Positions 292 through 31,293 of a stretch of DNA of 33,748 nucleotides are shown here, piece after piece (the first letter of the stretch is position 1; every line of letters starts with the position of its first letter). The translations under genes were made by a program, and so were the position numbers. Below the pieces are notes generated by a model. That model ran no database searches. It was given only the letters and a program-made list of their open reading frames with translations, and was not told the DNA's origin. The DNA is from a virus (lineage: Duplodnaviria > Heunggongvirae > Uroviricota > Caudoviricetes). The DNA lies in the IMG/VR virus record IMGVR_UViG_2718218139_000002, one strand, 5' to 3'.

Positions 292-402
292 TCGTGCGTA
301 AAAAGTGTTCAAACATATGATTCTTGATTTTGTTTGCCACCATAGTAAGCATTTTTATGTTGCATGTAGAGATGAGAAGGCAGGTATCACTTGATTGATA
401 TA

Positions 403-2868
403 ATGAAGGTTTGGCTTATTTCTCAAAAGTGGTTCTGGAAATTAAGAACAGATCTTGTGAGGGTTAGATTTATTTTAGAACGTGCGTCATACATACATCG
501 TACGTCTGTTTTTAAAGCTAAGTCTAACGCTCATGTTTTTATGTCTTTTGCGTTGGTAGGTTTAAAAAATTTGTTATGGGTCATATTAACGTTATTTGCA
601 CTGGGTTTTGTTGAAGATTATATTCGGAATAATACGATTTTGCTTCATCCTCTTAGCTATGATGAAAAAAAATTTAATATTGATCAACTTAGGTTGTACG
701 CACAGATACTTACCGCTATATTTTCAATATACTTTGCTACAATAGGTATCATTCTAAGTGCAGGATATACCAGACTTCGGCGAGATATTATACAAATGCT
801 TACTACCGAGCAGGTAGGTAATGTGTATTCGCGGACTTTAGTGCTTTCTGCGGTGTTTTGTCTTAGTGCAACTGCTCTCCACTTGTTCGGGGTTGAACCC
901 GGTCTTTTCGTTTATGCAATGGGAACATTGCTGACACTTGTTAGTTCCTTAGCTCTGTTCCCATTAGGTCAAAGATTATTCAATTTTTTTGACCTAAATC
1001 AGTTAGCCCGAAGTGAAATACTCCCACGAATTGCACGACACATCGAAGGTGCGTCTAATCCCAAGAATTCAGTATCTTTAGCTAATCATCACTCTAAAGC
1101 CGCACATTTGGCCTTTGAGCAGTTAAACTACATTGATGATCGCCTGATATGTGAAAAAGTAGGACTCGGAGATAATTTACCTGCTCTCAGTAATGTTTAT
1201 TCGGCATTACTTCTTCATTACCTTAATCAGAAACACAGAATTGATTATCAAAGTTACTGGTTCCCTAGACGAATAAAACATAAGCAATGGTTCTTAGCTG
1301 GCGACAGTGTAACATCCATTGCTTTAAAAACAAGGAGCCAATTAACGGTTGAAGAAGAACCAAATTATCTTTGGTTAGAGAATGAAATTATCAATAGGTT
1401 GGTAGGCCATATTGAACTTGCATTCAAAGCCGGTGATTTCAAGCTCGGGTTGGATCTCATCAGTCTATTCTCATCTCGTATATTAACTTATGCACAACAG
1501 TTTCAGTTCGATATTGGTATACGTGAACTTCGGAAAATGAAGACGATCATTGAAAAAGCCTTTACACCGTCTGATGTCGTTAATTATTTTGAGGAAAAGG
1601 TGATAAAAGTTGGAATTGCGGATGCATGGGCTGCATTAGGCAGCAATCTTTGCCTTGAAATGTTACGCCGCATGATTACTTTTGAGAAAGAATTGGAGCA
1701 GTTCTTTAAAGATGATATCTGGACAGAGACCTCTCTACACACTTTGCCTGCTTTTCTGCAGGTTGAGTTGGCCTTTATCGTAGAACGTATCGAATTCGAA
1801 AAAGAGATTGAAGGACAGAGATTATCCAAACCAAAGTACGTCCAGCAGTTGGCGGTTCAGAAGTTATTACAACAATATTCTAAAATTCTGCCAGAAGTAT
1901 GCGATTTTCACGTAAACATGGTTCCAGATTTCGTTAACTCACTGATAAACATGAAGATGCCGGAAGCCGCAACGCAAGTCGTTCTCGCTAGCCTACATAA
2001 TCATTTGAAGTTTCCCCATTGGTTTAATGAACTTTCTCTGCTCTTGGAGAGATACAGAAAGTACGAGCACTACTCTGAAAAGCTATACGCATTACCAGAA
2101 ATTAATATTGCTGAAATGCTCAAACAGTTTGTCGTTACACAGGATGAAGCTATAGCTATTCTTGGTAGGGAGGAAATTGTGGGACATATCATTGAACAAG
2201 AGCAAGATGATGAACTACCGGATCATTTGGGACAGATATATTTTGAGTTGGCTGAGGAATGTATACATGCGCTTGAACAGAATGATGAAAATAAACTGAG
2301 CAAGGTATTCCCTATGTTCATGGTTCTCTCATTGCTGGCATCAGATACTAAATTTGTAGATCCGAAACTCGATATAAACAACGAGTTTCGACTGCATCTC
2401 CTTTCATCCGCGATCAACGATCTGATGTCAGTTCTAGGTTTTGCTATCCTTTACAGTGCTTATTTCGATAATGCAAAACTATCTAAAACAGTACTTGATA
2501 GGTTTAAGTCTTGGCTCGAGTCTGTTCCCAACAAACAGCAGTATTTGAAGAGAATGATGATTCTTTCAAATCCGCGCAATTTCAGCTTGTGCGCATCACC
2601 GAGAGATATGATTCGTCTTAACTGGAAAATGGAATTTGAGCGCCGCGCAAGACATGATGGCTTTAGCGATCAAATGGGAATGAATCGAGGGAAATCTCAT
2701 ACGAACAAAGTTGTCAGAGAGTTCTTAAACTCCCATTCAGATGCATCGCATCTCTTTTGTGCTCTCGAAATTTTCCCGCAACTCGAGCAAATTGACTTCA
2801 AGATCGATTACCATGTTAGTGAGTTGGCTCGTCGTTTTGGCGTGGAATACGATAAGGATTTTGAATGA
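403..2868 (+). CDS. Large membrane protein, four predicted N-terminal TM helices plus a roughly 630-aa soluble domain; no recognisable family
   Basis: Long ORF 391-2868 (TTG at 391, first ATG at 403; start uncertain). Hydrophobic segments FMSFALVGLKNLLWVILTLFALGFV, LYAQILTAIFSIYFATIGIILSAGY, VLSAVFCLSATALHLFGV, LFVYAMGTLLTLVSSLALFPLG. AT-rich relative to phage genes. Stop overlaps the next start (ATGA). Confidence 0.6.
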   Translation: MKVWLISQKWFWKLRTDLVRVRFILERASYIHRTSVFKAKSNAHVFMSFALVGLKNLLWVILTLFALGFVEDYIRNNTILLHPLSYDEKKFNIDQLRLYAQILTAIFSIYFATIGIILSAGYTRLRRDIIQMLTTEQVGNVYSRTLVLSAVFCLSATALHLFGVEPGLFVYAMGTLLTLVSSLALFPLGQRLFNFFDLNQLARSEILPRIARHIEGASNPKNSVSLANHHSKAAHLAFEQLNYIDDRLICEKVGLGDNLPALSNVYSALLLHYLNQKHRIDYQSYWFPRRIKHKQWFLAGDSVTSIALKTRSQLTVEEEPNYLWLENEIINRLVGHIELAFKAGDFKLGLDLISLFSSRILTYAQQFQFDIGIRELRKMKTIIEKAFTPSDVVNYFEEKVIKVGIADAWAALGSNLCLEMLRRMITFEKELEQFFKDDIWTETSLHTLPAFLQVELAFIVERIEFEKEIEGQRLSKPKYVQQLAVQKLLQQYSKILPEVCDFHVNMVPDFVNSLINMKMPEAATQVVLASLHNHLKFPHWFNELSLLLERYRKYEHYSEKLYALPEINIAEMLKQFVVTQDEAIAILGREEIVGHIIEQEQDDELPDHLGQIYFELAEECIHALEQNDENKLSKVFPMFMVLSLLASDTKFVDPKLDINNEFRLHLLSSAINDLMSVLGFAILYSAYFDNAKLSKTVLDRFKSWLESVPNKQQYLKRMMILSNPRNFSLCASPRDMIRLNWKMEFERRARHDGFSDQMGMNRGKSHTNKVVREFLNSHSDASHLFCALEIFPQLEQIDFKIDYHVSELARRFGVEYDKDFE

Positions 2869-3857
2869 AAATTATCAAGAATATACCCCTTTACGGTTAT
2901 AGCGTCGATCCTGAGCAATTAAGTTTTGTTGATAGACTATTGACCAAGTCTAAGAATGAACGACCAGGTTTCTATCAAAGGATGTTTTATGAGGATTTTG
3001 CTAGAGTTTTTAATTTTGTAAATCACGGTGATACCAATTTGTTTCAAATCGAAACTAACGACGAAGAACTCATACGTAAAATGTTTGGAAATTTACAAGC
3101 TAGATATAGGAAATACTCGGTAGATGAAACAATACGTGAATTGGTGGAGGCAGTAGCGCAATCGTTGATTTGGCAAGGAACGGCATACTATTTTGTTCAA
3201 AACGTTTCTGAGCAAGAAAAAATACATATTACTCCTCTCGTTTCTGATAATATATTTTGTTTTTTTTCAGTGTATTTTCAGTATGTGCCGAAACGGTGTG
3301 AAAGATATTTAGAACGGGATCATGAGATGCTTCCAAGAGAATTAAGAATCTTGGATAAAAACAAACTAATGCGTTTCGAAATTCCTAGGTCCTTAAGGCA
3401 GATGTTGTCTGAACAAAATCGGACTTTAAAGATCATTGACAAGCATCAATTTGGTGTTACTAATTTTTATCCTCAAGCAACATACGAAAATCCTAACCCG
3501 AAAAGTCACTTTGATTTTAGCATTTGGAAAAATACGCAAGAGCAAGCATTATTCCGAGCTACGAGGAAAACCGGGTGGAATGGTAGAAATTATGATTCAT
3601 CAAAATGTTCTGATTTCTTCCATTACTATCGTCTTATTCGATTTAGACGGAATCAACTTATTTTACGTGATTATATATTGTTGCAATTAGGTAAAGAGCT
3701 CACAAGGGTAGGTCACCGATATAATGAGGACTTTAATGTTGTGATTTCACCAACAAGTGTTTTGCCTCAAATCGATAAACTAGATGAGATGGAATCATTA
3801 CTTTCTAGGGAGGAAATAGATTTTACTGAGGTGTCGGATTACTATTACGAACGTTGA
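2865..3857 (+). CDS. 330-aa soluble hypothetical protein, partner of the membrane protein
   Basis: ATG at 2865 overlaps the upstream TGA (2866-2868), indicating translational coupling; AT-rich; no motif recognised. Confidence 0.6.
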   Translation: MKIIKNIPLYGYSVDPEQLSFVDRLLTKSKNERPGFYQRMFYEDFARVFNFVNHGDTNLFQIETNDEELIRKMFGNLQARYRKYSVDETIRELVEAVAQSLIWQGTAYYFVQNVSEQEKIHITPLVSDNIFCFFSVYFQYVPKRCERYLERDHEMLPRELRILDKNKLMRFEIPRSLRQMLSEQNRTLKIIDKHQFGVTNFYPQATYENPNPKSHFDFSIWKNTQEQALFRATRKTGWNGRNYDSSKCSDFFHYYRLIRFRRNQLILRDYILLQLGKELTRVGHRYNEDFNVVISPTSVLPQIDKLDEMESLLSREEIDFTEVSDYYYER

Positions 3858-19419: not shown

Positions 19420-19440
19420 TGGGGCTTCGGCCCCATTTTT
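19420..19440 (+). terminator. Rho-independent terminator after the coat gene
   Basis: TGGGGC-TTCG-GCCCCA followed by TTTTTATT. Confidence 0.7.
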
Positions 19441-19623
19441 ATTGGGAGAAGACAATGGCACGAACAATGCTCTATAAGCCAGGCAACATGATCACCTGCG
19501 GTCAGTTTGCTGTCGATTACATCATTGTTGATGACTAAGAAGTTAAATCTCACCTGAAAAAAGGTTGGGTAAAAACTCCTGAAGAAACCGCAACGAAGCA
19601 AAAAGTGGCTAAGGCGGAAGAAG

Positions 19624-20085
19624 ATGGCGAAAACGAAGGGTAATCTCGTTCTAAAGGCTTTACGAAAAGCTGGGCTGTATTCCAATGCCACGTTGACAGA
19701 TGCTGACCCTCAGGCAATTGAAGATGCCATTAATGACCTCGAAGACATGATGGCAGCATGGCAGGCGAAAGGTATCGAGCTTGGGTATCAGTTTGCTGAT
19801 ACAGAAAACGGCATCATGCCGTTACCTGACGATGATTCAGGTATCCCTGCATGGGCAAATGATGGCGTCGCTTTGAAGCTCGCTGTGCAAGTGTGCATGG
19901 ATAACGTCATTCAGCCGTCAGACGCTCTCCTTACCGCTGCTGACAGTGCATATCAGACAATCTGCATCGCTTTAACCAAAATACCACCACTTGAGCGGCG
20001 AAATGACATGCCTCGCGGTAGTGGTAACAAAAGCGCGTTTACGTGGAATCGGTTTTACATCGAGAAAGATGATCCGAGTACGTGA
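19624..20085 (+). CDS. gp4: Tail accessory / head-completion protein (P22 gp4-like)
   Basis: Position after coat; similarity to P22 gp4 as recalled (KGNLVLKALRKAGL..ATLTD..PQ...DLE.MMA.W). Confidence 0.75.
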   Translation: MAKTKGNLVLKALRKAGLYSNATLTDADPQAIEDAINDLEDMMAAWQAKGIELGYQFADTENGIMPLPDDDSGIPAWANDGVALKLAVQVCMDNVIQPSDALLTAADSAYQTICIALTKIPPLERRNDMPRGSGNKSAFTWNRFYIEKDDPST

Positions 20086-20094
20086 GGTGAATAA

Positions 20095-21513
20095 ATGCCG
20101 ATTCAGCAACTTCCGCTTATGAAAGGTGTCGGCAAAGACTTTCGAAACGCCGACTATATCGACTATCTGCCAGTGAATATGCTGGCTACACCCAAAGAAA
20201 TACTCAACAGCAGCGGATATCTTCGCTCATTCCCGGGCATTGCCAAACGCTCCGATGTAAACGGTGTATCGCGCGGAGTCGAGTACAACATGGCGCAGAG
20301 TGCTGTTTATCGCGTGTGCGGGGGCAAGCTGTATAAGGGCGAAAGCGAAGTCGGTGACGTCGCCGGAAGTGGTCGCGTATCAATGGCGCATGGTCGAACA
20401 TCACAGGCGGTAGGCGTTAATGGTCAACTGGTCGAGTATCGCTATGATGGTACGGTTAAAACCGTCTCAAACTGGCCTACAGACAGTAGATTCACTCAGT
20501 ATGAGTTAGGCTCAGTCCGCGACATTACGCGCTTACGTGGGCGTTATGCGTGGTCAAAAGACGGTACTGATTCATGGTTTATCACTGACCTTGAAGACGA
20601 ATCACATCCTGACCGATACAGCGCACAATATCGCGCAGAATCTCAGCCGGACGGCATCATCGGAATCGGAACATGGCGAGACTTCATCGTCTGCTTTGGT
20701 TCATCGACGATTGAATATTTTTCCCTGACAGGTGCAACCACCGTTGGTGCCGCTTTGTATGTCGCACAGCCATCACTGATGGTGCAGAAAGGCATTGCCG
20801 GAACTTACTGCAAAACGCCGTTTGCTGATTCGTATGCATTTATCAGCAATCCGGCAACGGGTGCGCCATCTGTATACATCATCGGCTCCGGTCAGGTGTC
20901 ACCAATCGCCAGCGCGAGCATTGAGAAAATACTACGCTCCTACACTGCTGATGAACTGGCTGATGGCGTGATGGAATCGTTGCGGTTTGATGCTCATGAG
21001 TTGCTGATTATCCACCTTCCTCGCCATGTTCTCGTGTACGACGCATCTTCAAGCGCCAATGGTCCGCAATGGTGTGTGTTGAAAACTGGCTTGTATGACG
21101 ATGTGTACCGCGCTATCGACTTCATTTACGAAGGCAATCAGATAACGTGCGGCGATAAGCTGGAATCCGTGACCGGGAAATTGCAGTTCGATATCAGCAG
21201 CCAGTACGACAAGCAGCAGGAACACCTGCTGTTTACTCCGTTGTTCAAAGCGGATAACGCCAGAGTTTTCGACCTTGAAGTTGAATCGTCAACTGGAGTT
21301 GCGCAGTATGCTGACCGCCTTTTTCTCTCTGCAACCACTGACGGCATCAATTACGGGCGTGAGCAGATGATTGAGCAGAATGAACCGTTCGTTTACGACA
21401 AACGCGTTTTGTGGAAGCGTGTCGGGCGAATAAGGAAAAATGTCGGATTCAAATTGCGCGTTATCACGAAGTCACCTGTCACTCTGTCTGGCGCTCAGAT
21501 AAGGATTGAGTAA
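20095..21513 (+). CDS. gp10: Tail accessory protein (P22 gp10-like)
   Basis: 472 aa, near-identical to P22 gp10 as recalled ([16 protein letters not shown]...[32 protein letters not shown]). Confidence 0.85.
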
Positions 21514-22361
21514 TGGCGGATTCGAATCTCAATGTGCCGGTAATCATTCAGGCTACACGGCTCGACACATCAGTTCTTCCACGCAATATCTTCTCGCAGT
21601 CGTATCTGCTTTACGTTATCGCACAGGGCACTGATGTTGGTAACGTGGCTAACAAGGCCAACGAGGCCGGACAGGGCGCTTATGATGCACAAGTCAGGAA
21701 CGATGAGCAGGATGTGATTCTCGCTGACCATGAGCAGCGAATTTCTGCTGCGGAAGCAACACTTGTTAATCATGAGGAGCGAATCAGCCAGGCAGAATCA
21801 ACTCTTCAGGAACATGAAACGCGAATCGCTCAGAATGAAAGCGATATTGCGTCGCTTGATACCAGAGTTCAGTCGCTGGAATCGCAGGTTTCAGACCATG
21901 AATCGCGCATTGATGCTCTGGAGTATGCCACTACTCGCAAGAAGTCAGAGATTGTTTACTCTGGCGTATCTGTAACTATTCCGACAGCGCCTACTAACCT
22001 TGTTAGCCTGCTGAAAACGCTCACGCCGTCATCCGGAACGTTGGCACCATTCTTCGACACTGTTAACAACAAGATGGTTGTTTTCAACGAGAACAAAACC
22101 CTGTTATTCAAGCTGTCGATTGTCGGGACGTGGCCCAGCGGAACCGCTAACAGATCAATGCAGCTAACGTTTTCCGGCTCTGTTCCTGACACACTTGTGA
22201 GCAGTCGTAATGCGGCGACAACAACCGATAACATCCTGTTAGCTACGTTCTTCAGCGTGGATAAAGACGGCTTTCTTGCCACAAATGGCAGTACGTTAAC
22301 CATTCAGTCAAATGGGGCGGCGTTTACTGCCACAACCATCAAGATAATCGCGGAGCAGTAA
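21513..22361 (+). CDS. gp26: Tail needle (P22 gp26-like N-terminus, Sf6-type extended C-terminal knob)
   Basis: N-terminus [43 protein letters not shown] matches P22 gp26; heptad coiled-coil middle; C-terminal roughly 130 aa differ from P22 and the length (282 aa) matches Sf6-type needles. Confidence 0.8.
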
Positions 22362-22816
22362 TGATTCAGTTCAAACCAACGCGAAACATCGACCTGATCG
22401 AAGCAGTCGGAAATCACCCTGACATTATTGCCGGAAGCAACAACGGTGATGGATACGAATACAAGCCTGAATGCCGTTACTTTGAGGTGAACGTGCACGG
22501 TCAGTTTGGCGGCATTGTTTACTATCAGGAGATTCAGCCGCTGACATTCGATTGCCACGCCATGTACCTGCCAGAGATTCGCGGCTTCAGCAAGGAAATC
22601 GGGCTGGCGTTCTGGCGATACATTCTGACTAACACCACCGTTCAGTGCGTCACATCGTTCGCTGCACGCAAATTCCGCCACGGTCAGATGTATTGCGCAA
22701 TGATTGGCCTTAATCGTGTAGGAACCATCAAGAAATACTTCAAAGGCGTGGATGACGTGACGTTTTACAGCGCCACACGCGAAGAACTAATCGACTTCCT
22801 GAATCACGGGAGATAG
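22361..22816 (+). CDS. gp14: Ejection/assembly protein (P22 gp14 position)
   Basis: Gene order between tail needle and gp7; start overlaps upstream stop; sequence not recalled independently. Confidence 0.55.
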   Translation: MIQFKPTRNIDLIEAVGNHPDIIAGSNNGDGYEYKPECRYFEVNVHGQFGGIVYYQEIQPLTFDCHAMYLPEIRGFSKEIGLAFWRYILTNTTVQCVTSFAARKFRHGQMYCAMIGLNRVGTIKKYFKGVDDVTFYSATREELIDFLNHGR

Positions 22817-22818
22817 CC

Positions 22819-23508
22819 ATGTTATATGCATTTAATCTGGGCAGAAAACTGCGCGGAGAGGAACCTTATTGCCCTGAAAAAGGCGGCAAAGGTGGCTCCG
22901 ATAAAAGCGCAAAGTATGCAGCAGAAGCCCAGAAGTATGCCGCAGACCTGCAAAATCAGCAGTTCAACACCATCATGAACAACCTGAAGCCGTTTACTCC
23001 TCTGGCTGATAAGTATGTCGGCAGCCTCGAGAACTTATCGTCTCTGGAAGGGCAAGGTCAGGCACTTAACCAGTATTACAACTCTCAGCAGTACAAAGAT
23101 CTTGCTGGTCAGGCTCGCTATCAGAGTCTGGCGGCAGCGGAAGCAACAGGTGGATTGGGTTCCACCGCAACCAGTAATCAGTTAGCAACAATCGCACCAA
23201 CGCTTGGTCAGCAATGGCTATCTGGTCAGATGAACAACTACCAGAATCTGGCAAATATTGGTCTTGGCGCACTGCAAGGTCAGGCAAACGCCGGGCAGAC
23301 ATATGCCAACAACATGAGTCAGATTTCGCAGCAAAGTGCGGCTCTTGCAGCGGCAAATGCCAACAGACCATCAGCAATGCAATCTGCTATTGGCGGAGGT
23401 GCGTCTGGTGCTATTGCTGGGGCTGGACTTGCGAAATTAATTGGTTCATCAACTCCGTGGGGGGCTGCGATCGGCGGCGGTCTTGGTCTACTTGGCTCGT
23501 TGTTTTAA
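22819..23508 (+). CDS. gp7: Ejection protein gp7
   Basis: Near-identical to P22 gp7 as recalled (MLYAFNLGRKLRGEEP...GGGLGLLGSLF). Confidence 0.85.
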   Translation: MLYAFNLGRKLRGEEPYCPEKGGKGGSDKSAKYAAEAQKYAADLQNQQFNTIMNNLKPFTPLADKYVGSLENLSSLEGQGQALNQYYNSQQYKDLAGQARYQSLAAAEATGGLGSTATSNQLATIAPTLGQQWLSGQMNNYQNLANIGLGALQGQANAGQTYANNMSQISQQSAALAAANANRPSAMQSAIGGGASGAIAGAGLAKLIGSSTPWGAAIGGGLGLLGSLF

Positions 23509-23517
23509 GGGGTAATC

Positions 23518-24933
23518 ATGGCTACGTGGCAACAGGGTATTAATTCTGGTGGTTTTCTGGCTGGCATCGGTACGCAAAATGAGAATGCGCCAAAGGCAAG
23601 CGACATTAACGCAACGCTTGGTCTGATCCGCGAAAACAATGAACTGGCTCGCTCAGGTGCAAATAACGTTGGTCTGACCGCGTTACGTGGTCTGGCTGGA
23701 GTTGCTGATATTTACAATCAGGAACAGCAACAGAAAGCGATTAGTGCGTTCAATAAGGTTCATGCTGATGCATGGGCTTCTGGTGATCCATCGGGACTAT
23801 TTAAGTTTGCCCAGGAAAATCCAGCGTTTGTTGCACAGGCACAACAGGCGTTTTCCGGTCTTAATGAGCAGCAACGCAACGATATGGGCGATTTAGCCAT
23901 GAGGGCTAACGTCGCTCTTTCTCAGGGACCGGAAGCCTACAGTAAATTCATTACTGACAACAAGGACAGGTTAAATCGCGTTGGCGCTAATGCTGACTGG
24001 ATGATTCAGACAGGTATCCAGAATCCAGAGCAGCTATCACACATGCTGACTACTATGTCTCTCGGTGCGCTTGGACCAGAAAAGGCGTTTGCTGTTCAGG
24101 ACAAGATGGCTGGTCGTGAGATTGACCGAGGCAGACTGGCAGAGACAATCCGCAGCAATCAGGCTGGAGAAGCACTTCAGGCGAGAGGGCAAAACCTTTC
24201 CTATCAGTCAGCAATGACTGGACACAATATCGCAGCACAACGCTTGGCTCTGGATCAGCAAGAGTTCGGATTTAAGATGCAGCAAGCGCAGGAAAAGGCT
24301 CAGCAGTTGATTAGCGAAGCACCTAAGCTGTCAGTAAACATGGAAAAAGGCATCGAGACGGCTGTAAACAATGCCACAGCATCATCAAACTCAGCCAATT
24401 CCATGAGTGCGCTTGCTCAACAGTTCAGAGCAGAAAAACCAACGACAGGTTTGTTCGGTAACGCACAGAACATGTTCGCAAAACTTACCGGAAGCGATAC
24501 GACATTGCGTGATTTGCGCATTCGCCAAAATGCCCTTGTTAACAGTCAGGTTCTTAAATTCCTACCTCCCGGCCCAGCAACTGATAAAGACGTTGAGATC
24601 GTTCGACAGGGTGCGCCAACTGACATGGATAACCCTGAGACGGTCGCAAGATGGCTTGATGCAATGGCAAACCTTGAGCGACGAAACGCGCAGTTTAATG
24701 AGTTTAAAGCCGAGTGGATGAGCGCGAATGGCAACTCTGGACAATCGCGTAATGGCGGTCAGATATTGGGGTTGGATGTTAAAAAAGGTGAATCATTGGG
24801 GAGTGCCGTTAAGCGGTATATGTCAATGAATACTGACGCAGCGCCAGCACAAGATTCGACACCTTCAGGAAAACCACGTAATCAGGTTGGATCATATACC
24901 TCAAAATCAGGCATTCAATTTACGGTGGAATGA
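23518..24933 (+). CDS. gp20: Ejection protein gp20
   Basis: 471 aa, the P22 gp20 size as recalled, in the conserved position. Confidence 0.75.
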
Positions 24934-26771
24934 TGAAAGTAACTGCAAACGGTAAGACATTTACCTTCCCTGATGGTACGAGCACGGAAGATATTGGAGC
25001 CGCCATTGATGAGTATTTTGCTGGTCAGGTTGTTCAGCAACAAACAGTTAATCAGGCCAATAATGCACCAGTACGTGAAGACCCATCATTGATGCAACAA
25101 GCTGGCGATTGGCTCACTGGTGGTCAAAGTGCAGGGCAAATTGCAGAACAGGCTGGTCGTGGTCTGGTAAACATACCATTTGACGTATTGCAGGGTGGCG
25201 CAAGTCTGATTAATGCAATCAGTCAGGGGCTTGGAGGGCCAAAAGTTTTGGATGATGTTTATCGTCCAGTAGACAGACCGACAGACCCATACGCACAAGC
25301 CGGTGAAACAATTGGCGGGTATTTAGTTCCAGGAGTTGGAACGGCAGGAAGCATGGCTATTGGATCACTGGCAGAGGCCGCAAATCAGAAAGGTGATTTC
25401 GCACAAAATGCAGCTAAAAATGCCGGAGTTAACCTTGCCGCTCAGGGTGTTCTTTCCGCAGCAGCAAAGGGAATAGGGCGTGGAATAACGGCTATAAAAG
25501 GTGATATTGCGCCAGAAGTGGCGAAGAAAATAGCCACATCAGAATCGATGGGCGTGACACCAATGACATCTGATGTTATCCCGCCGAAAAATGCTTTCAC
25601 TCGCGGACTTACTCAGGATGCCGAGGGGGCTTTGCTCGGGACGGGCTCAAAGCGAGCAGAGCAATATGCAACGCGTAGTAAGCTGGTAAGCAATTATTTT
25701 GACCGTTTTGGTGAGTACAACCCTGATGATGTGGTGAAATCTCTGACCACCACGTTAAGGGGGCGGAAGGATGCTGCTGGCGCTGTTATCAATGACGTCA
25801 CCAATAAAATGGGTAATGCCGCAGTTGATACCACAAATACCATGAATGCTCTGAATACAGCGATCGCAAGACAGGAACGACTTGGGACGTCTGCCAATCA
25901 AAGCCTGCTTACATCCTTGCGTAACCTACGTGAAGAATTAGCAAACCCTGCAACTGATTTGGATGTTACGTTTGATCTCTTGCGTCAGCACAGAACAGCA
26001 TTTAGATCTAATGTTCAGGGAGATGCTATGGTCTTCCCCAACCAGGCAAAAGCAGCTACCAATATGGTAGAGAATGCAATGTCAAAAGACCTTCGTAACG
26101 CAGTTGCTAAAAACCTCGGTGCTTCAGACGCAGCAAAATACCTTAAAGCAAATTCCGATTATGCAAACGTTTATAATAAGGTGCTTAATAAAAACATTGC
26201 TAACAAACTCAACAAGGCAAGCAGTGAAGCCAGCCCTGAACTTATAAATACTGTTGTATTAAGCAGAAAACCATCTGACGTGAAACGAATCTGGAGCGCA
26301 CTGGATGATAAAGGGAAAGATGCTATGCGTGCAGCTTACATCAGCAAAATAGCGGAAAAGGCCGGTGACTCTCCAGCCAAGTTCATCACTGAAGTTAATA
26401 AGCTGAAATCTCAGTCAGGCGGTGAAATTTACAACACTATTTTTTCTGGAAAGCACATGAAAGAGCTTGATTCTCTTCATGAAGTTCTACAGCAAACAGC
26501 AAGGTCAGACACCGCAAATGTAGTAACTCAGACGGGGCAATCGCAAGCCAACCGGATAAGGACGATTGGCGCAACTGCGACTCTTGGCGTATCAATGGGG
26601 CTTGAGGCTGGCTTTGGTGCAATGATGCGTTTGTATGAGTCTAAAGCAGCAAGAAACATGCTTCTCCGCCTTGCAAACGTCAAGCCTGGAACTCCGGCAT
26701 ATGAGCGAGCGTTAAATCAGGCTGCTAACGCCGTTCGCCCTCTCCTAACTAACGAAGCTACCAGGCAGTAG
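24930..26771 (+). CDS. gp16: Ejection protein gp16
   Basis: 613 aa, close to the P22 gp16 size as recalled, in the conserved position; start overlaps the gp20 stop. Confidence 0.75.
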
Positions 26772-26790
26772 AAATGAACGCCAAGGAAGG

Positions 26791-27120
26791 CTATTTAATT
26801 CTCTTTTCAATGGCTGCAATTATTGCTTTTCCTGATGTTTCAGGAGATTTTGTAGCCATATAAGACGAAAAAATCATGTCGGTCATTCTTTCATAACTTA
26901 CTATTTCCCACTTAGCCAATGCATGGGACAGTTTGTAGTTGTCATCAGTTAGTGCCCTTATGGAATTTTTTAAGTGTTTATTCTCTTCTGTTAATCGCGC
27001 AATTTTTGTATCAATTTCATGTGAGCGATCTAATTCCTTAACCTGTTTCTTGAGGGCAGCTAACCCTGCATATAGTACGCAACAGGATATCCCAAGAGCG
27101 AGTACGACTATTTCTAACAC
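26791..27120 (-). CDS. Small membrane-anchored coiled-coil protein (sieA-region cargo)
   Basis: GTG start with AAGGAGG 6 nt upstream; N-terminal TM helix LEIVVLALGISCCVLYAGLAAL followed by heptad-rich region. Confidence 0.5.
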   Translation of the reverse strand: MLEIVVLALGISCCVLYAGLAALKKQVKELDRSHEIDTKIARLTEENKHLKNSIRALTDDNYKLSHALAKWEIVSYERMTDMIFSSYMATKSPETSGKAIIAAIEKRIK

Positions 27121-27238
27121 ACCAACCTCCTTAGTTTTTCGCAGGATACCATGAAAAAAGTAAACATCTTTTGCCTACTTCACATTTGAATGGTTTGTCA
27201 TTAGGATGTTTCCGGTTTTTTCAAATATGGAAATTGAT

Positions 27239-27658
27239 ATGAAGAGGATTATCGGCGTTGTTGCTGGCGCTATATTGTTATCTGGGTGCGCAACTATTGT
27301 TGGTGACGAAACACAGCTCGTGCAAGTGAACAGCAATCCTTCCGGTGCGAGCTTTAAAGTAAAAGACGAATCAGGCGTGATTGTTGCGCAAGGCAAGACC
27401 CCGCAAGGAGTAACTCTTGCCAAGTCAGATGGTAGTTATTTTGGCAAAAAGAGCTACCAGATCACTATGGAAAAGGATGGGTACGAACCAGTTACCCTGC
27501 CAATCAAAGCCAATGCTAATGGTTGGTATATTGGTGGAAACCTTGTGTTTGGTGGGTTAATTGGTTGGCTTGCTGTAGATCCTTTTAATGGTGGGATGTA
27601 TACCTTGAAGCCAAAAGAGGCAAACGCATCTCTTATACCATCAACAAAGCAAGACTAA
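27239..27658 (+). CDS. Lipoprotein (signal peptide with lipobox LLSGC), PEGA-like beta domain
   Basis: MKRIIGVVAGAILLSGC lipoprotein signal; remainder is beta-rich with G/W-rich C-terminus; start could also be the ATG at 27227. Confidence 0.65.
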   Translation: MKRIIGVVAGAILLSGCATIVGDETQLVQVNSNPSGASFKVKDESGVIVAQGKTPQGVTLAKSDGSYFGKKSYQITMEKDGYEPVTLPIKANANGWYIGGNLVFGGLIGWLAVDPFNGGMYTLKPKEANASLIPSTKQD

Positions 27659-27665
27659 TAAATAG

Positions 27666-27690
27666 GACCCACCTTCAGGTGGGTTTTTTG
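27666..27690 (+). terminator. Terminator after the lipoprotein gene (overlaps the mnt stop)
   Basis: ACCCACCT-TCAG-GTGGGT followed by TTTTTTG. Confidence 0.6.
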
Positions 27691-27926
27691 TACAAATCCT
27701 TCAGCGTATCAAACACCATCTTCTTAACAAGCTCTGACTGCTCATCAGCGAGTCGTTCTGCATCGTCGCGATATCCAGTCACAGGCGATGGTTTTGATAG
27801 AGCATCTTGGACGATTTGTAACAACTCGGAGTTCATTGATCTCCCATTCGCCTCCGCCCTGAATTTTAATTTCTCCCTTACTTCCATAGGCATACGGAAG
27901 TTAAAGTGCGGATCATCTCTAGCCAT
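27675..27926 (-). CDS. mnt: Mnt repressor (ribbon-helix-helix)
   Basis: Near-identical to P22 Mnt as recalled (MARDDPHFNFRMPMEVREKLKFRAEANGRSMNSELLQIVQDAL...). Confidence 0.9.
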   Translation of the reverse strand: MARDDPHFNFRMPMEVREKLKFRAEANGRSMNSELLQIVQDALSKPSPVTGYRDDAERLADEQSELVKKMVFDTLKDLYKKPT

Positions 27927-27948
27927 GCCATCACTCCAAGTTAGTGTA

Positions 27949-28000
27949 TTGACATGATAGAAGCACTCTACTATATTCTCAATAGGTCCACGGTGGACCT
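27949..28000. promoter_or_regulatory. immI control region: Pant with arc operator and mnt operator
   Basis: TTGACA (27949-27954), 17 bp containing ATGATAGAAGCACTCTACTAT (arc operator as recalled), TATATT (27972-27977); perfect 17-bp palindrome AGGTCCACGGTGGACCT at 27984-28000. Confidence 0.7.
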
Positions 28001-28016
28001 ATATTGTGAGGTGAAT

Positions 28017-28178
28017 ATGAAAGGAATGAGCAAGATGCCGCAGTTCAATTTGCGGTGGCCTAAAGAAGTATTGGATTTGGTACGCAAGGTGGCGGAAGAG
28101 AATGGTCGGTCTGTTAACTCTGAGATTTATCAGAGAGTAATGGAAAGCTTTAAGAAGGAAGGGCGCATTGGCGCGTAA
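28017..28178 (+). CDS. arc: Arc repressor (ribbon-helix-helix)
   Basis: [53 protein letters not shown] matches P22 Arc as recalled. Confidence 0.9.
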
Positions 28179-28246
28179 AGTTGAAGCCCCAACTGCGGGA
28201 ACAGTCAGGGCTTCGGTATCAACAAATCGGATTAGGAAATATTGAC

Positions 28247-29125
28247 ATGAAAAGTATAGCAAAGGCACAAAACGATTTCACCATCTTCAAATTCGGCGAC
28301 AGTGAAATCCGCGTCATCAACAAATGCGGTGAGCCGTGGTTTGTAGCAAAAGATGTTTGTGATGCTTTAACCCTGACTAACTCACGCAAGGCGCTTACTG
28401 CACTTGATGACGATGAAAAGGGAGTAACTTTAAGTTACACCCTTGGTGGTGAGCAGAATCTAAGCATTGTTAGCGAATCAGGTATGTATACATTGGTTCT
28501 GCGCTGCCGCGATGCTGTCAATAAAGGTTCGGTCCCGCACAAATTCCGCAAGTGGGTAACAGCAGAAGTTCTACCTTCAATTCGCAAACATGGCGAGTAT
28601 GTGAAAGGCAAGAAAACCACTGTTGAGGAAAGAACGCCGCTACGCGATGCAGTAAACATGCTGGTAGGAAAGAAAGGACTTCGCTATGACGATGCATACA
28701 ATATGGTTCATCAGCGTTTTGGTATTGACAGCATTGATGAACTTTCAATTGAACAAATCCCGCTGGCCGTAGAGTACATCCACAGGGTAGTGCTTGAAGG
28801 CGAGTTTATCGGCAAACAAGAGAAGAAAGCAAACGAGCTTTCTGCAAAAGAAGCAAACAGCCTTGTATGGCTATGGGATTATGCTAACCGTTCACAGGCA
28901 TTATTCCGCGAACTGTATCCGGCATTAAAACAAATTCAATCGAACTATTCCGGCAGATGCTACGACTACGGTCATGAATTCTCGTATGTTATCGGAATGG
29001 CGAGAGACGTTTTAATAAACCACACACGAGATGTTGATATTAATGAGCCAGACGGACCAGCGAATCTTTCCGCATGGATGAGACTTAAGAATAAAGAATT
29101 ACCTCCTTCAGTACATAACTACTGA
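28247..29125 (+). CDS. ant: Antirepressor Ant (Bro-N domain)
   Basis: Follows arc; AGGAA ribosome-binding site before ATG at 28247; Bro-N-like N-terminal domain ([28 protein letters not shown]). Confidence 0.75.
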
Positions 29126-29142
29126 CAGATAACCAACGCAAC

Positions 29143-29169
29143 GACCCAGCTTCGGCTGGGTTTTTTTTA
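29143..29169 (+). terminator. Rho-independent terminator after ant
   Basis: ACCCAGC-TTCG-GCTGGGT followed by TTTTTTTT. Confidence 0.75.
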
Positions 29170-29226
29170 TGCCCAAAATTCACCGTAGCCATGCTGCGGC
29201 GATTCCTTGTATCTGGAGCAAATTAA

Positions 29227-31254
29227 ATGACAGATATCACCGCAAATGTTGTGGTAAGCATGCCTTCGCAACTCTTCACTATGGCGCGTTCTTTTAAAGC
29301 GGTTGCCAATGGCAAAATTTATATCGGAAAAATTGACACTGACCCGGTAAATCCTGAAAACCAGATTCAGGTTTATGTAGAGAATGAAGACGGTTCTCAC
29401 GTTCCTGTTGCACAGCCAATCATCATTAACGCTGCTGGATATCCGGTATATAACGGACAGATTGCCAAGTTCGTAACTGTGCAAGGCCACTCTATGGCTG
29501 TATACGATGCGTATGGAGCGCAGCAGTTCTATTTTCCTAATGTGCTGAAGTATGATCCAGATCAGTTCTCCATAGATTTCCCTCAGCAACTTTCTCAATT
29601 AGGGTTATATGTAAATGATGACAGCAAGGGAGATGCAATGATAGGTGTTAAGCAGCCTATCACTGGGTCAATTCATCGTACACAGCACGATGTAAACTAT
29701 GAAAGAATTAGCGCTTTTGACCTTGGAGTGAAGGGGGATGGAGTTACTGATGATGTAACTGCAATTAGAGAAGCACTAATCACTGCAGCAACAGCAAGAC
29801 GTTCCATCCATTTCCCTGATGGCGTCTATTTATGCAGTGACTTTTTTTCAATACCAAGCCACTCAAGGATCTATTGTGACCCCGGTGCAGTTTTTAAACT
29901 TACAGGTAGTACTAGCCTTGGTGGATTCGCTGTAACAGGCCTCAATAATCAGGTGCAGCCAGAGCTATGTGAAGATGTTGTTACGTATAACATGACGCTT
30001 GATTGCAATAAAATATCAGGTGAAAACGGAATGAATGGCGTGACATGTAGGAACATACGTCACTACAACCTTACAGTCATTAATACTCTTCACAACGCAG
30101 AATCAAGAGGAGGAAGGGCCTTTCAATGCGAAGGGGGGATTTCATCTGATGTCCATGTTTTTAACTTTGTAATTAAAAATTGCTCTATAGGTGTAAATTA
30201 TCAAGGGCTACCAGATGCATCTCAAAAGGTTGCAGCATTCAGCTTTCACGGTGTAGCAATGGAGAACGTAGATGTTCCGTTCTGTATTTATTCACAAATA
30301 TCTAACCCTGAGTCAAACACACCAGAAATTATGAGTGTAGCTGCGTTTGATGTAAGTTGCCATAACTGCGGAAAAATCACTGGTGGATATGGTGATCAAC
30401 TTGGTGCTGGAATAATATGTGGCGATAGAGGTTATGGGCTATTTATAGATGGTATTCGAGTGGTTAACGAATCATCGTATGGAGGGATTGGAGCTTTTAT
30501 AAGGGGGCAAATGTTTGGCGTATCAATAAACAACGCTGACATTTATTGCATTTACGCTGTTTCAGTAATAGATCATAACAAGATAGGGTTTGATGACGCC
30601 GCTGTTAATACAGTTCCTTCAAGCGTTAGAGTTAGAAATTTAAATGTATCAAGTAATTTGGATTTTATAGTTCGAGCCCCTGACTCTTCGGCTATTGGTA
30701 ACTCAACAGTTGACGTGTCTGTAAACATAACAAGAGCATCACTAAATCAATTATTTGATTCTGGCGCAGGAGAAAGCGCTTCCGCAGTTATTAATATATC
30801 TGACTCTTTGACTGGTAAGTCATCAGGATTTAGAACGTTAAAAAATATTTTTGATGCTGGTAATTCTATTGGTTTACTATCTAGATATGATGCTGGCGGA
30901 AGCTGGGTCCCAATAGACGGTAGTGGTGCAGGAATTGCAATATTATTAACAGGACAGCAAAAATATACAAAAGCAGGTGAGGTTGTTCACTTTTATATGA
31001 ACATCATATACCCAGTGAACGATAACACAAACGACGCTGTTATCTCTGGATTGCCTTTTAACTCTGTACCGTTTGTTTCTCAATTTGCAGGAGCGGCATC
31101 AATAGCGATTAAGTCATCATCAATGTTATCAACTGTAGGGATTCTTCCTGGTGGTGATAAGCTGAAATTCTATGGTACAACTGGTGCCCCACTAACTAAC
31201 AGAGACATGTCAGGCGTTAGTGTTGCTGTTTTCGGATCATATATTTCCGAATAG
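29227..31254 (+). CDS. gp9: Tailspike: P22-type N-terminal head-binding domain fused to a distinct receptor-binding (probable beta-helix) domain
   Basis: N-terminal roughly 115 aa ([13 protein letters not shown]...[34 protein letters not shown]...[12 protein letters not shown]...NVLKYDPDQ) match P22 gp9 as recalled; remainder unrelated to P22. Confidence 0.85.
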
Positions 31255-31293
31255 AAGAAAAATATATTTAAATTGGTGCAAAAACTTGGACGC

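Follow-up and report, generated by a model that had tools for sequence, protein, structure and literature searches.

We examined a 33,748-nucleotide stretch of viral DNA (Duplodnaviria; Heunggongvirae; Uroviricota; Caudoviricetes; IMG/VR record IMGVR_UViG_2718218139_000002), hereafter called the window, which carries a defective P22-like prophage with an intact tailspike gene. This gene is an uninterrupted open reading frame (ORF) of 675 amino acids with an ATG start at 29227-31254 on the plus strand. Its product contains a full-length match to the Pfam domain PF09008 (Head_binding) over residues 1-113 (E 2.5e-67) and a match to PF12708 (pectate-lyase-like) over residues 162-327 that scored above threshold, with 39.5 bits against a 27-bit cut-off. 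Upstream, late genes of the P22 type were identified as homologs of gp4, gp10, gp26, gp14, gp7, gp20, and gp16, and these are followed by an immI region with Arc/Mnt, the antirepressor, and the sar antisense RNA. The PF09008 domain, the position of the gene after the immI region, and a right-handed beta-helix receptor-binding domain (RBD) are features that the protein shares with P22-like tailspikes. Downstream, the integrase abuts argW, with yfdC located beyond argW. Very probably, the gene product is the tailspike of an argW-integrated Lederbergvirus prophage of the Sf6/HK620 type, its RBD binds the O145 O-antigen of Escherichia coli and probably cuts it, and the gene persists as an intact relic in a defective prophage.

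The serogroup could be named through a tailspike that has already been described. Over residues 118-675 (558 positions), the window RBD is identical at 554 positions to the RBD of the Lederbergvirus prophage tailspike of the O145 strain FHI58 (LM995999.1), a protein with the same 675 amino acids in length, the same architecture, and the same receptor-binding protein (RBP) subtype as in PMC10408124. The FHI58 sequence was machine-read from the PDF of Supplementary Table S1 of PMC11762384. From the window to FHI58, the differences comprise the substitutions P245T and E516G and two single-residue gaps, which are uncertain and probably errors of PDF reading because the table states residues 118-675. 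In the published screen of 23 O145 genomes, Lederbergvirus prophages were encountered in four (CFSAN004176, CFSAN004177, FHI58, and FHI63); these collapse to one RBP subtype, which was assigned to O145 through its relation to the RBP of Ro145c2YLVW, the two RBDs being structurally similar (Pas et al. 2023, PMC10408124). Membership of the O145 RBP subtype required identity of 30% or more and coverage of 60% or more relative to an RBP whose O145 specificity is known (PMC10408124), and the window protein shows 36.1% identity over 75% of its length to the Ro145c2YLVW RBP in addition to its near-identity with the FHI58 RBD. Among phage genomes, the RBD was matched only by the O145-infecting siphophages Ro145clw, Ro145c2YLVW, and P818, at about 36% identity over residues 167-673. 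These Kagunavirus siphophages share the assigned serogroup but carry a siphovirus anchor in place of the P22 head-binding domain, and their sequences are much more divergent. The host range of Ro145clw has been described as O145-specific (PMC6627115).

The same RBD has also been put to experimental use. The fusion R2-O145-b, which joins an R2 tailocin anchor to residues 118-675 of the FHI58 tailspike, cleared the O145 strain A11-1581 and lowered counts by 4.6 log (2025, PMC11762384). Judged from the alignment, the window RBD is the published O145 RBD, an object that is already known and experimentally exploited. An earlier note on this DNA, made from the sequence alone, had proposed an O-antigen specificity other than that of P22, and had anticipated that a C-terminal domain aligning closely to a tailspike of known specificity would count against the proposal while still identifying the serotype. 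Such an alignment is what was found, and the serogroup it names is O145. The interpretation was thus right and the object not new, because the FHI58 RBD had already been assigned to O145 and shown to direct O145 killing.

We assessed the distribution of the gene among 5,426 complete E. coli genomes. Three of these carry it at full length, with 98.8-98.9% nucleotide identity, and all three belong to the 37 genomes that carry the O145 wzy gene; the O-antigen clusters were inspected in two of the three carriers and were of the O145 type. With two near-identical isolates from Korea and one isolate from Ecuador, the carriers represent at least two independent lineages. In the three carriers the tailspike lies in a P22-like prophage at sbcB/dacD with a different integrase, and not at argW. 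The host is E. coli; several complete genomes of this species match the chromosomal flank of the window at 99.9% identity, and positions 19227-33748 of the window are 100% identical to QQVX01000004.1 (GCA_013416625.1).

Homologs of the RBD were also encountered in prophage tailspikes of Salmonella at 62-82% identity. Every named serovar among their hosts belongs to O48, namely houtenae 48:g,z51:- and salamae 48:d:z6. Tailspikes from O48 prophages of Salmonella enterica in clusters P0003 and P0004 combine a full-length PF09008 domain with RBDs that are 82% and 62% identical to that of the window; they come from another genus, and their hosts appear to carry an O145-like Wzy. The O145 Wzy polymerase likewise has full-length Salmonella homologs at 70-72% identity, and those assigned to a serovar are S. 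bongori 48:z35:- and serovar Djakarta, which we take to be an O48 serovar of the Kauffmann-White scheme. One Salmonella contig of 4,925,620 bp appeared among both the Wzy homologs and the RBD homologs, which suggests that both genes occur in one Salmonella genome. In 2005, Feng and colleagues reportedly described a very close structural relationship between O145 and Salmonella O48 (serovar Toucra). In O-acetylation, the O-antigens of O48 and O145 differ. Among the serogroups of Salmonella, O48 alone has been noted to carry sialic acid in its O-antigen (PMC9631793).

The E. coli O145 O-antigen contains N-acetylneuraminic acid (Neu5Ac) and N-acetimidoyl-L-fucosamine (L-FucNAm) linked (alpha1-3) to N-acetylglucosamine (GlcNAc) (PMC7685785). 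In the mechanism that we propose, the trimer would be attached to the tail hub of a P22-type virion through residues 1-113, a docking module that matches Sf6 gp14N, for which the structure has been solved in situ. Residues ~167-675 would then bind the O145 O-antigen, with its repeat of Neu5Ac, L-FucNAm, and GlcNAc, and the beta-helix RBD would probably cleave it, at one of the three linkages of the repeat (GlcNAc-beta1-4-Neu5Ac, Neu5Ac-alpha2-3-FucNAm, or FucNAm-alpha1-3-GlcNAc).

The modules of the protein were delimited by gapless alignment to characterised tailspikes. Against P22 gp9 (PDB sequences), 86 of 112 positions are identical (77%) over residues 2-113 and 2 of 9 over residues 114-122, and the match stops at about residue 121, which bears out the earlier claim that approximately the first 115 residues match P22 gp9. 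Sf6 gp14 is identical at 104 of 113 positions (92%) over residues 1-113 and at 40 of 76 (53%) over the neck and cap (residues 114-189), where the sequence match stops. On these alignments the N-terminus is Sf6-like rather than P22-like and is followed by a semi-conserved neck/cap segment. The tailspikes of HK620, HZ41, and 611R6 match the window protein up to residues 166-172, and the segment of residues 114-166 alone was matched by many library proteins. The C-terminal domain alone was matched by many proteins of unrelated length, which suggests that it is a separately shuffled module; residues 506-675 probably serve in trimer stabilisation or in extra binding. It was also noted that an antisense ORF of 143 amino acids with a TTG start (29167-29598, minus strand) overlaps the start of the tailspike gene; it is without support as a gene and is probably spurious.

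We further characterised the RBD with an AlphaFold2 model, built as a monomer from an alignment of 19 sequences. Residues ~160-675 were modelled with high confidence (predicted local distance difference test, pLDDT, mostly above 85); in this part, a capping helix is followed by a long parallel beta-helix, which runs to approximately residue 500, and by a C-terminal domain rich in beta structure. The N-terminal 150 residues were poorly modelled, as expected for a monomer with a shallow alignment. A Foldseek search of the PDB returned the Sf6, HK620, Det7, and P22 tailspikes with template modelling (TM) scores no higher than 0.52 and, over the RBD, identities of 9-19%, and a fold search of BFVD returned generic beta-helix tail proteins only. 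As modelled, the RBD is a beta-helix tailspike domain without a close solved relative; for the protein beyond about residue 121, identity to solved structures was put at no more than 17%. The comparison with the Sf6, HK620, and P22 tailspikes that had been suggested beforehand therefore gave a likeness at the level of the fold, and the expectation of an RBD unrelated to that of P22 and probably folded as a beta-helix agrees with both the model and the Foldseek matches. Across the catalytic beta-helix, no sequence homology to the endorhamnosidases P22 gp9 and Sf6 gp14 was found, with similarity at the fold level only (12-19% identity). Sf6 gp14 (PDB 7sg7, 2vbe), the endorhamnosidase for the Shigella flexneri Y O-antigen, has a beta-helix RBD as well, but beyond residue 189 it shows no sequence similarity to the window protein (14% identity in the structural alignment) and acts on a different substrate.

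Conservation was assessed in an alignment of 34 family members, reaching down to about 25% identity. E302 is invariant, and D259, E266, D400, D449, and D479 are kept in at least 90% of the members, as are N267, R401, N414, and Y418. In the model these residues sit on successive rungs of the beta-helix, as expected of a catalytic groove. PF12708 was matched by 13 of the 34 members and GH28 by 4. From this pattern, E302 together with D400 or with D259/E266 would be the candidate catalytic residues. The protein would form a homotrimer with hydrolytic, endoglycosidase activity on the O-antigen; the conserved acidic residues are consistent with such activity, without proving it.

Sialic acid as a component of the substrate led us to consider an endosialidase identity. 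This was rejected, since the modelled fold is a beta-helix and not a beta-propeller, and the endosialidase profile PF12218 (End_N_terminal) scored 13.1 bits, below its cut-off of 26.3. The endosialidase tailspikes of K1F and CUS-3 (GH58) resemble the window protein in having a substrate that contains sialic acid, and CUS-3 additionally shares the head-binding domain and neck with it (residues 1-214). However, the GH58 enzymes combine a beta-propeller with polysialic acid, whereas the window tailspike combines a beta-helix with a heteropolymer.

The features surrounding and composing the tailspike gene are collected in Table 1. The position of the terminator upstream of the gene fits the immI layout of P22, and a scan for promoters around the tailspike gene gave results no better than those for shuffled sequence. 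In P22 the tailspike gene occupies the same position after mnt/arc/ant/sar and the head-binding domain is 77% identical, but the RBD is different. As for Sf6, both prophages lie at argW with the integrase adjoining the tailspike. In the KplE1/HK620/Sf6 recombination module, the integrase naturally adjoins argW and reads inward. No second copy of the attachment core of the argW region was found within the window, so the left end of the prophage either falls beyond the window or has been lost.

Table 1. Coordinates of the tailspike modules and of neighbouring features in the window
Feature	Position	Strand	Basis or remark
Head-binding (particle-attachment) domain, residues 1-113	29227..29565	+	PF09008; identity to Sf6 gp14 and P22 gp9
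Linker/neck and start of beta-helix cap, residues 114-166; recombination junction zone	29566..29724	+	Semi-conserved in many tailspikes
Right-handed parallel beta-helix, O145-type receptor-binding and presumed depolymerase domain, residues 167-505	29725..30741	+	
C-terminal beta-rich domain, residues 506-675	30742..31251	+	AlphaFold2 pLDDT ~71-94; partial matches
Downstream segment travelling with the tailspike	31255..31404	+	146/150 identical in LR-24 prophage; identity collapses after 31404
Antirepressor ant, immediately upstream of the tailspike gene	28181..29125	+	Bro-N and P22_AR_C domains
sar antisense RNA, overlapping the start of ant	28179-28245	-	Rfam RF00262, 71.6 bits
Strong intrinsic terminator between ant and the tailspike gene	29143..29170 (more narrowly, 29143-29162)	+	8-bp GC-rich stem, then T8
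Tyrosine integrase, convergent with the tailspike gene	31347..32540	-	Arm-DNA-bind_3 and Phage_integrase domains
tRNA-Arg(CCU), argW, attachment site at the right prophage end	32666..32740	-	ARAGORN and Rfam
IS3-family element splitting the coat gene, ~1.25 kb	17347..18592	-	Insertion relative to LR-24; rve and HTH_Tnp_1 domains
Segment with a second IS3-family transposase, ~1.4 kb in place of ~6.2 kb (terminase and most of portal)	14210..15649	+	Alignment to LR-24

The state of the prophage was judged by aligning the window to the intact prophage of E. coli LR-24. Terminase and portal have been deleted and the coat gene is split, so the prophage cannot form virions. The tailspike itself is full-length, as had been claimed for a gene left intact in a defective prophage, and three residues are changed relative to the Korean O145 copy, which also lies in a defective prophage, and seven relative to the copy in the intact LR-24 prophage. 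The left part of the prophage was noted to contain two overlapping ORFs of 825 and 330 amino acids (391-3857, plus strand) with low GC content (35-39%); neither had a match in Pfam, PADLOC, or PHROGs, and they were regarded as accessory cargo. A further ORF of 590 amino acids (8317-10089, minus strand; ~34% GC) matched only PHROG 9230, of unknown function, over its full length, and gave no match in Pfam or PADLOC.

Several points weigh against a tailspike that recognises and cleaves the O145 O-antigen in this host. The five complete genomes closest to the window flank (99.9%) do not appear in the O145 wzy list, and the host serogroup is not readable from the window itself. The tailocin test concerned one O145 strain, and a cross-serogroup panel was not found in PMC11762384. 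No demonstration of enzymatic activity for this particular RBD was found. At position 516 the window allele carries E, where FHI58, the Korean copy, and LR-24 all carry G. A target other than the O-antigen, such as colanic acid or capsule, with the O145 association being incidental, might be read from the best PHROG (8280), labelled 'tail spike protein with colanic acid degradation activity'; that match, over profile positions 1-349, stems from the shared N-terminus together with the generic beginning of the beta-helix, and the label was rejected. All three carriers are O145 against a background of 37 in 5,426, the named Salmonella hosts are all O48, relatives of the RBD occur in O145-specific lytic phages, and the tailocin with the FHI58 RBD acts on an O145 strain, all of which make such a target highly improbable.

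We also regard as unlikely a lectin-like RBD that binds O145 but lacks depolymerase activity. The polar and acidic residues conserved on successive rungs, with E302 invariant, argue against it, as do the four GH28 matches in the family and the above-threshold match to PF12708, and the characterised P22-like tailspikes (P22, Sf6, and HK620) are endoglycosidases. A silent relic, never assembled in the window host, possibly unexpressed, and perhaps weakened by the private G516E change, has a reasonable chance of being correct, although we would place it below even. The loss of terminase and portal, the split coat gene, the strong terminator directly upstream of the tailspike gene, and an E516 unique to the window allele all favour it; on the other side stand the full-length ORF with its few changes from the Korean and LR-24 copies, and the exact window allele on at least 21-24 contigs, so that the gene is stably kept in a lineage. 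Silence would concern the current role of the protein and not its identity, and it is compatible with an O145 tailspike preserved as an intact relic. Expression of such a gene would still be possible, as would its transfer to other phages through recombination.

The footprint of recombination was then considered within the gene. The window copy differs from the Korean O145 copy at 22 nucleotides, 20 of which fall in nucleotides 1-293 of the gene and 2 in the remaining ~1,735. By megablast, approximately 1,100 of the 5,426 E. coli genomes share only the first ~340 nucleotides, with matches stopping at nucleotides 338-348. GC content at third codon positions was 0.28 in the RBD, 0.43 in the head-binding module, and 0.38-0.54 in the two late genes sampled, gp16 and gp10. 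Because the RBD is ~99.9% identical at the nucleotide level between prophages with different head-binding modules, integrases, and attachment sites, it would have been acquired by recombination near codon 100-116. The word 'chimeric', used in the earlier note, fits insofar as a head-binding module is fused to a non-P22 RBD, but it overstates the rarity of the arrangement, since P22-like tailspikes normally exchange modules at this point, as the many genomes sharing only the first ~340 nucleotides indicate.

At the other end, the shared segment reaches 150 bp past the stop codon and into the last ~19 codons of the integrase gene. Downstream of its tailspike (L002 22014-22163), the LR-24 prophage keeps ~17 terminal codons of an argW-type integrase as the fragment '...MQWWADWIDEKVE*', while its own integrase lies at the other prophage end next to sbcB, with a different attachment site. 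This argW-type fragment, retained beside another integrase and site, suggests an argW-type phage as the source of the LR-24 tailspike cassette. In the interval between the tailspike and integrase genes, which converge, a perfect 12-bp palindrome, ACAAAGCTTTGT, was noted in two copies 8 bp apart (31294-31305 and 31314-31325), followed by a hairpin and a run of T's at 31340-31358. The stretch 31294-31358 is identical in the LR-24 prophage and might serve as a terminator in both directions or as a site for protein binding. Across its wider family, the RBD was found behind the anchors PF09008 (P22-type), PF03906 (T7 fibre), PF08400, and PF18668 (TSP1/gp66), and approximately 46 clusters at 50% identity match it at E < 1e-30.

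A further question is whether this family follows a particular class of glycans. In E. coli FDAARGOS_1277, a strain that is probably identical with CREC_5, a relative at 41% identity (P0026) with a PF18668 anchor is carried by a siphovirus prophage inserted at sbcB/dacD. A reading in which the whole family targets O145 was ruled out at this level of identity, as the FDAARGOS_1277 host is not O145. In this genome, an O8-type wzm/wzt cluster adjoins the his operon, and a Wzx/Wzy cluster lies between galF and gnd (L010 37685-46001 and L011 1-13162 span both clusters). The galF-gnd cluster encodes a legionaminic-acid-type nonulosonic acid pathway, fnlA/wbjC/wecB, a GT4 WbuB-like transferase, and wbuC, and it was not named by PGAP as a known O family. 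In the siphovirus prophage, the RBD relative (L009 8717-10789) is followed by genes for a GNAT acetyltransferase and a polysaccharide deacetylase, which may modify the O-antigen or capsule. An insertion of ISEcp1-blaCTX-M-32 was also noted in this prophage (L009 35460-39085).

The link between O145 and O48, together with the legionaminic acid and N-acetyl-L-fucosamine (L-FucNAc) cluster in the host of the 41% relative, suggests that the RBD family tracks glycans of nonulosonic acid, L-FucNAc(m), and GlcNAc; with one additional host, this is only a lead. Extended further, the family might be specialised for O-antigens with nonulosonic acid and L-FucNAc(m)-(alpha1-3)-GlcNAc, as beta-helix endoglycosidases that act inside sialic or legionaminic heteropolymers and are unrelated to the beta-propeller endosialidases, and the window tailspike might also act on Salmonella O48. 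We advance this tentatively and place its chances somewhat short of even.

Receptor-binding proteins specific for O145 are wanted for detection, engineered phages, and tailocins, and a 2025 paper still described no satisfactory O145 tailspike candidate for the engineering of Ackermannviridae (PMC12737597). The window adds nothing new on O145-targeting proteins, because the same RBD has already been catalogued and is in use. Its residual value lies in the enzymology of the RBD and in a possible family-level specialisation for nonulosonic-acid O-antigens.
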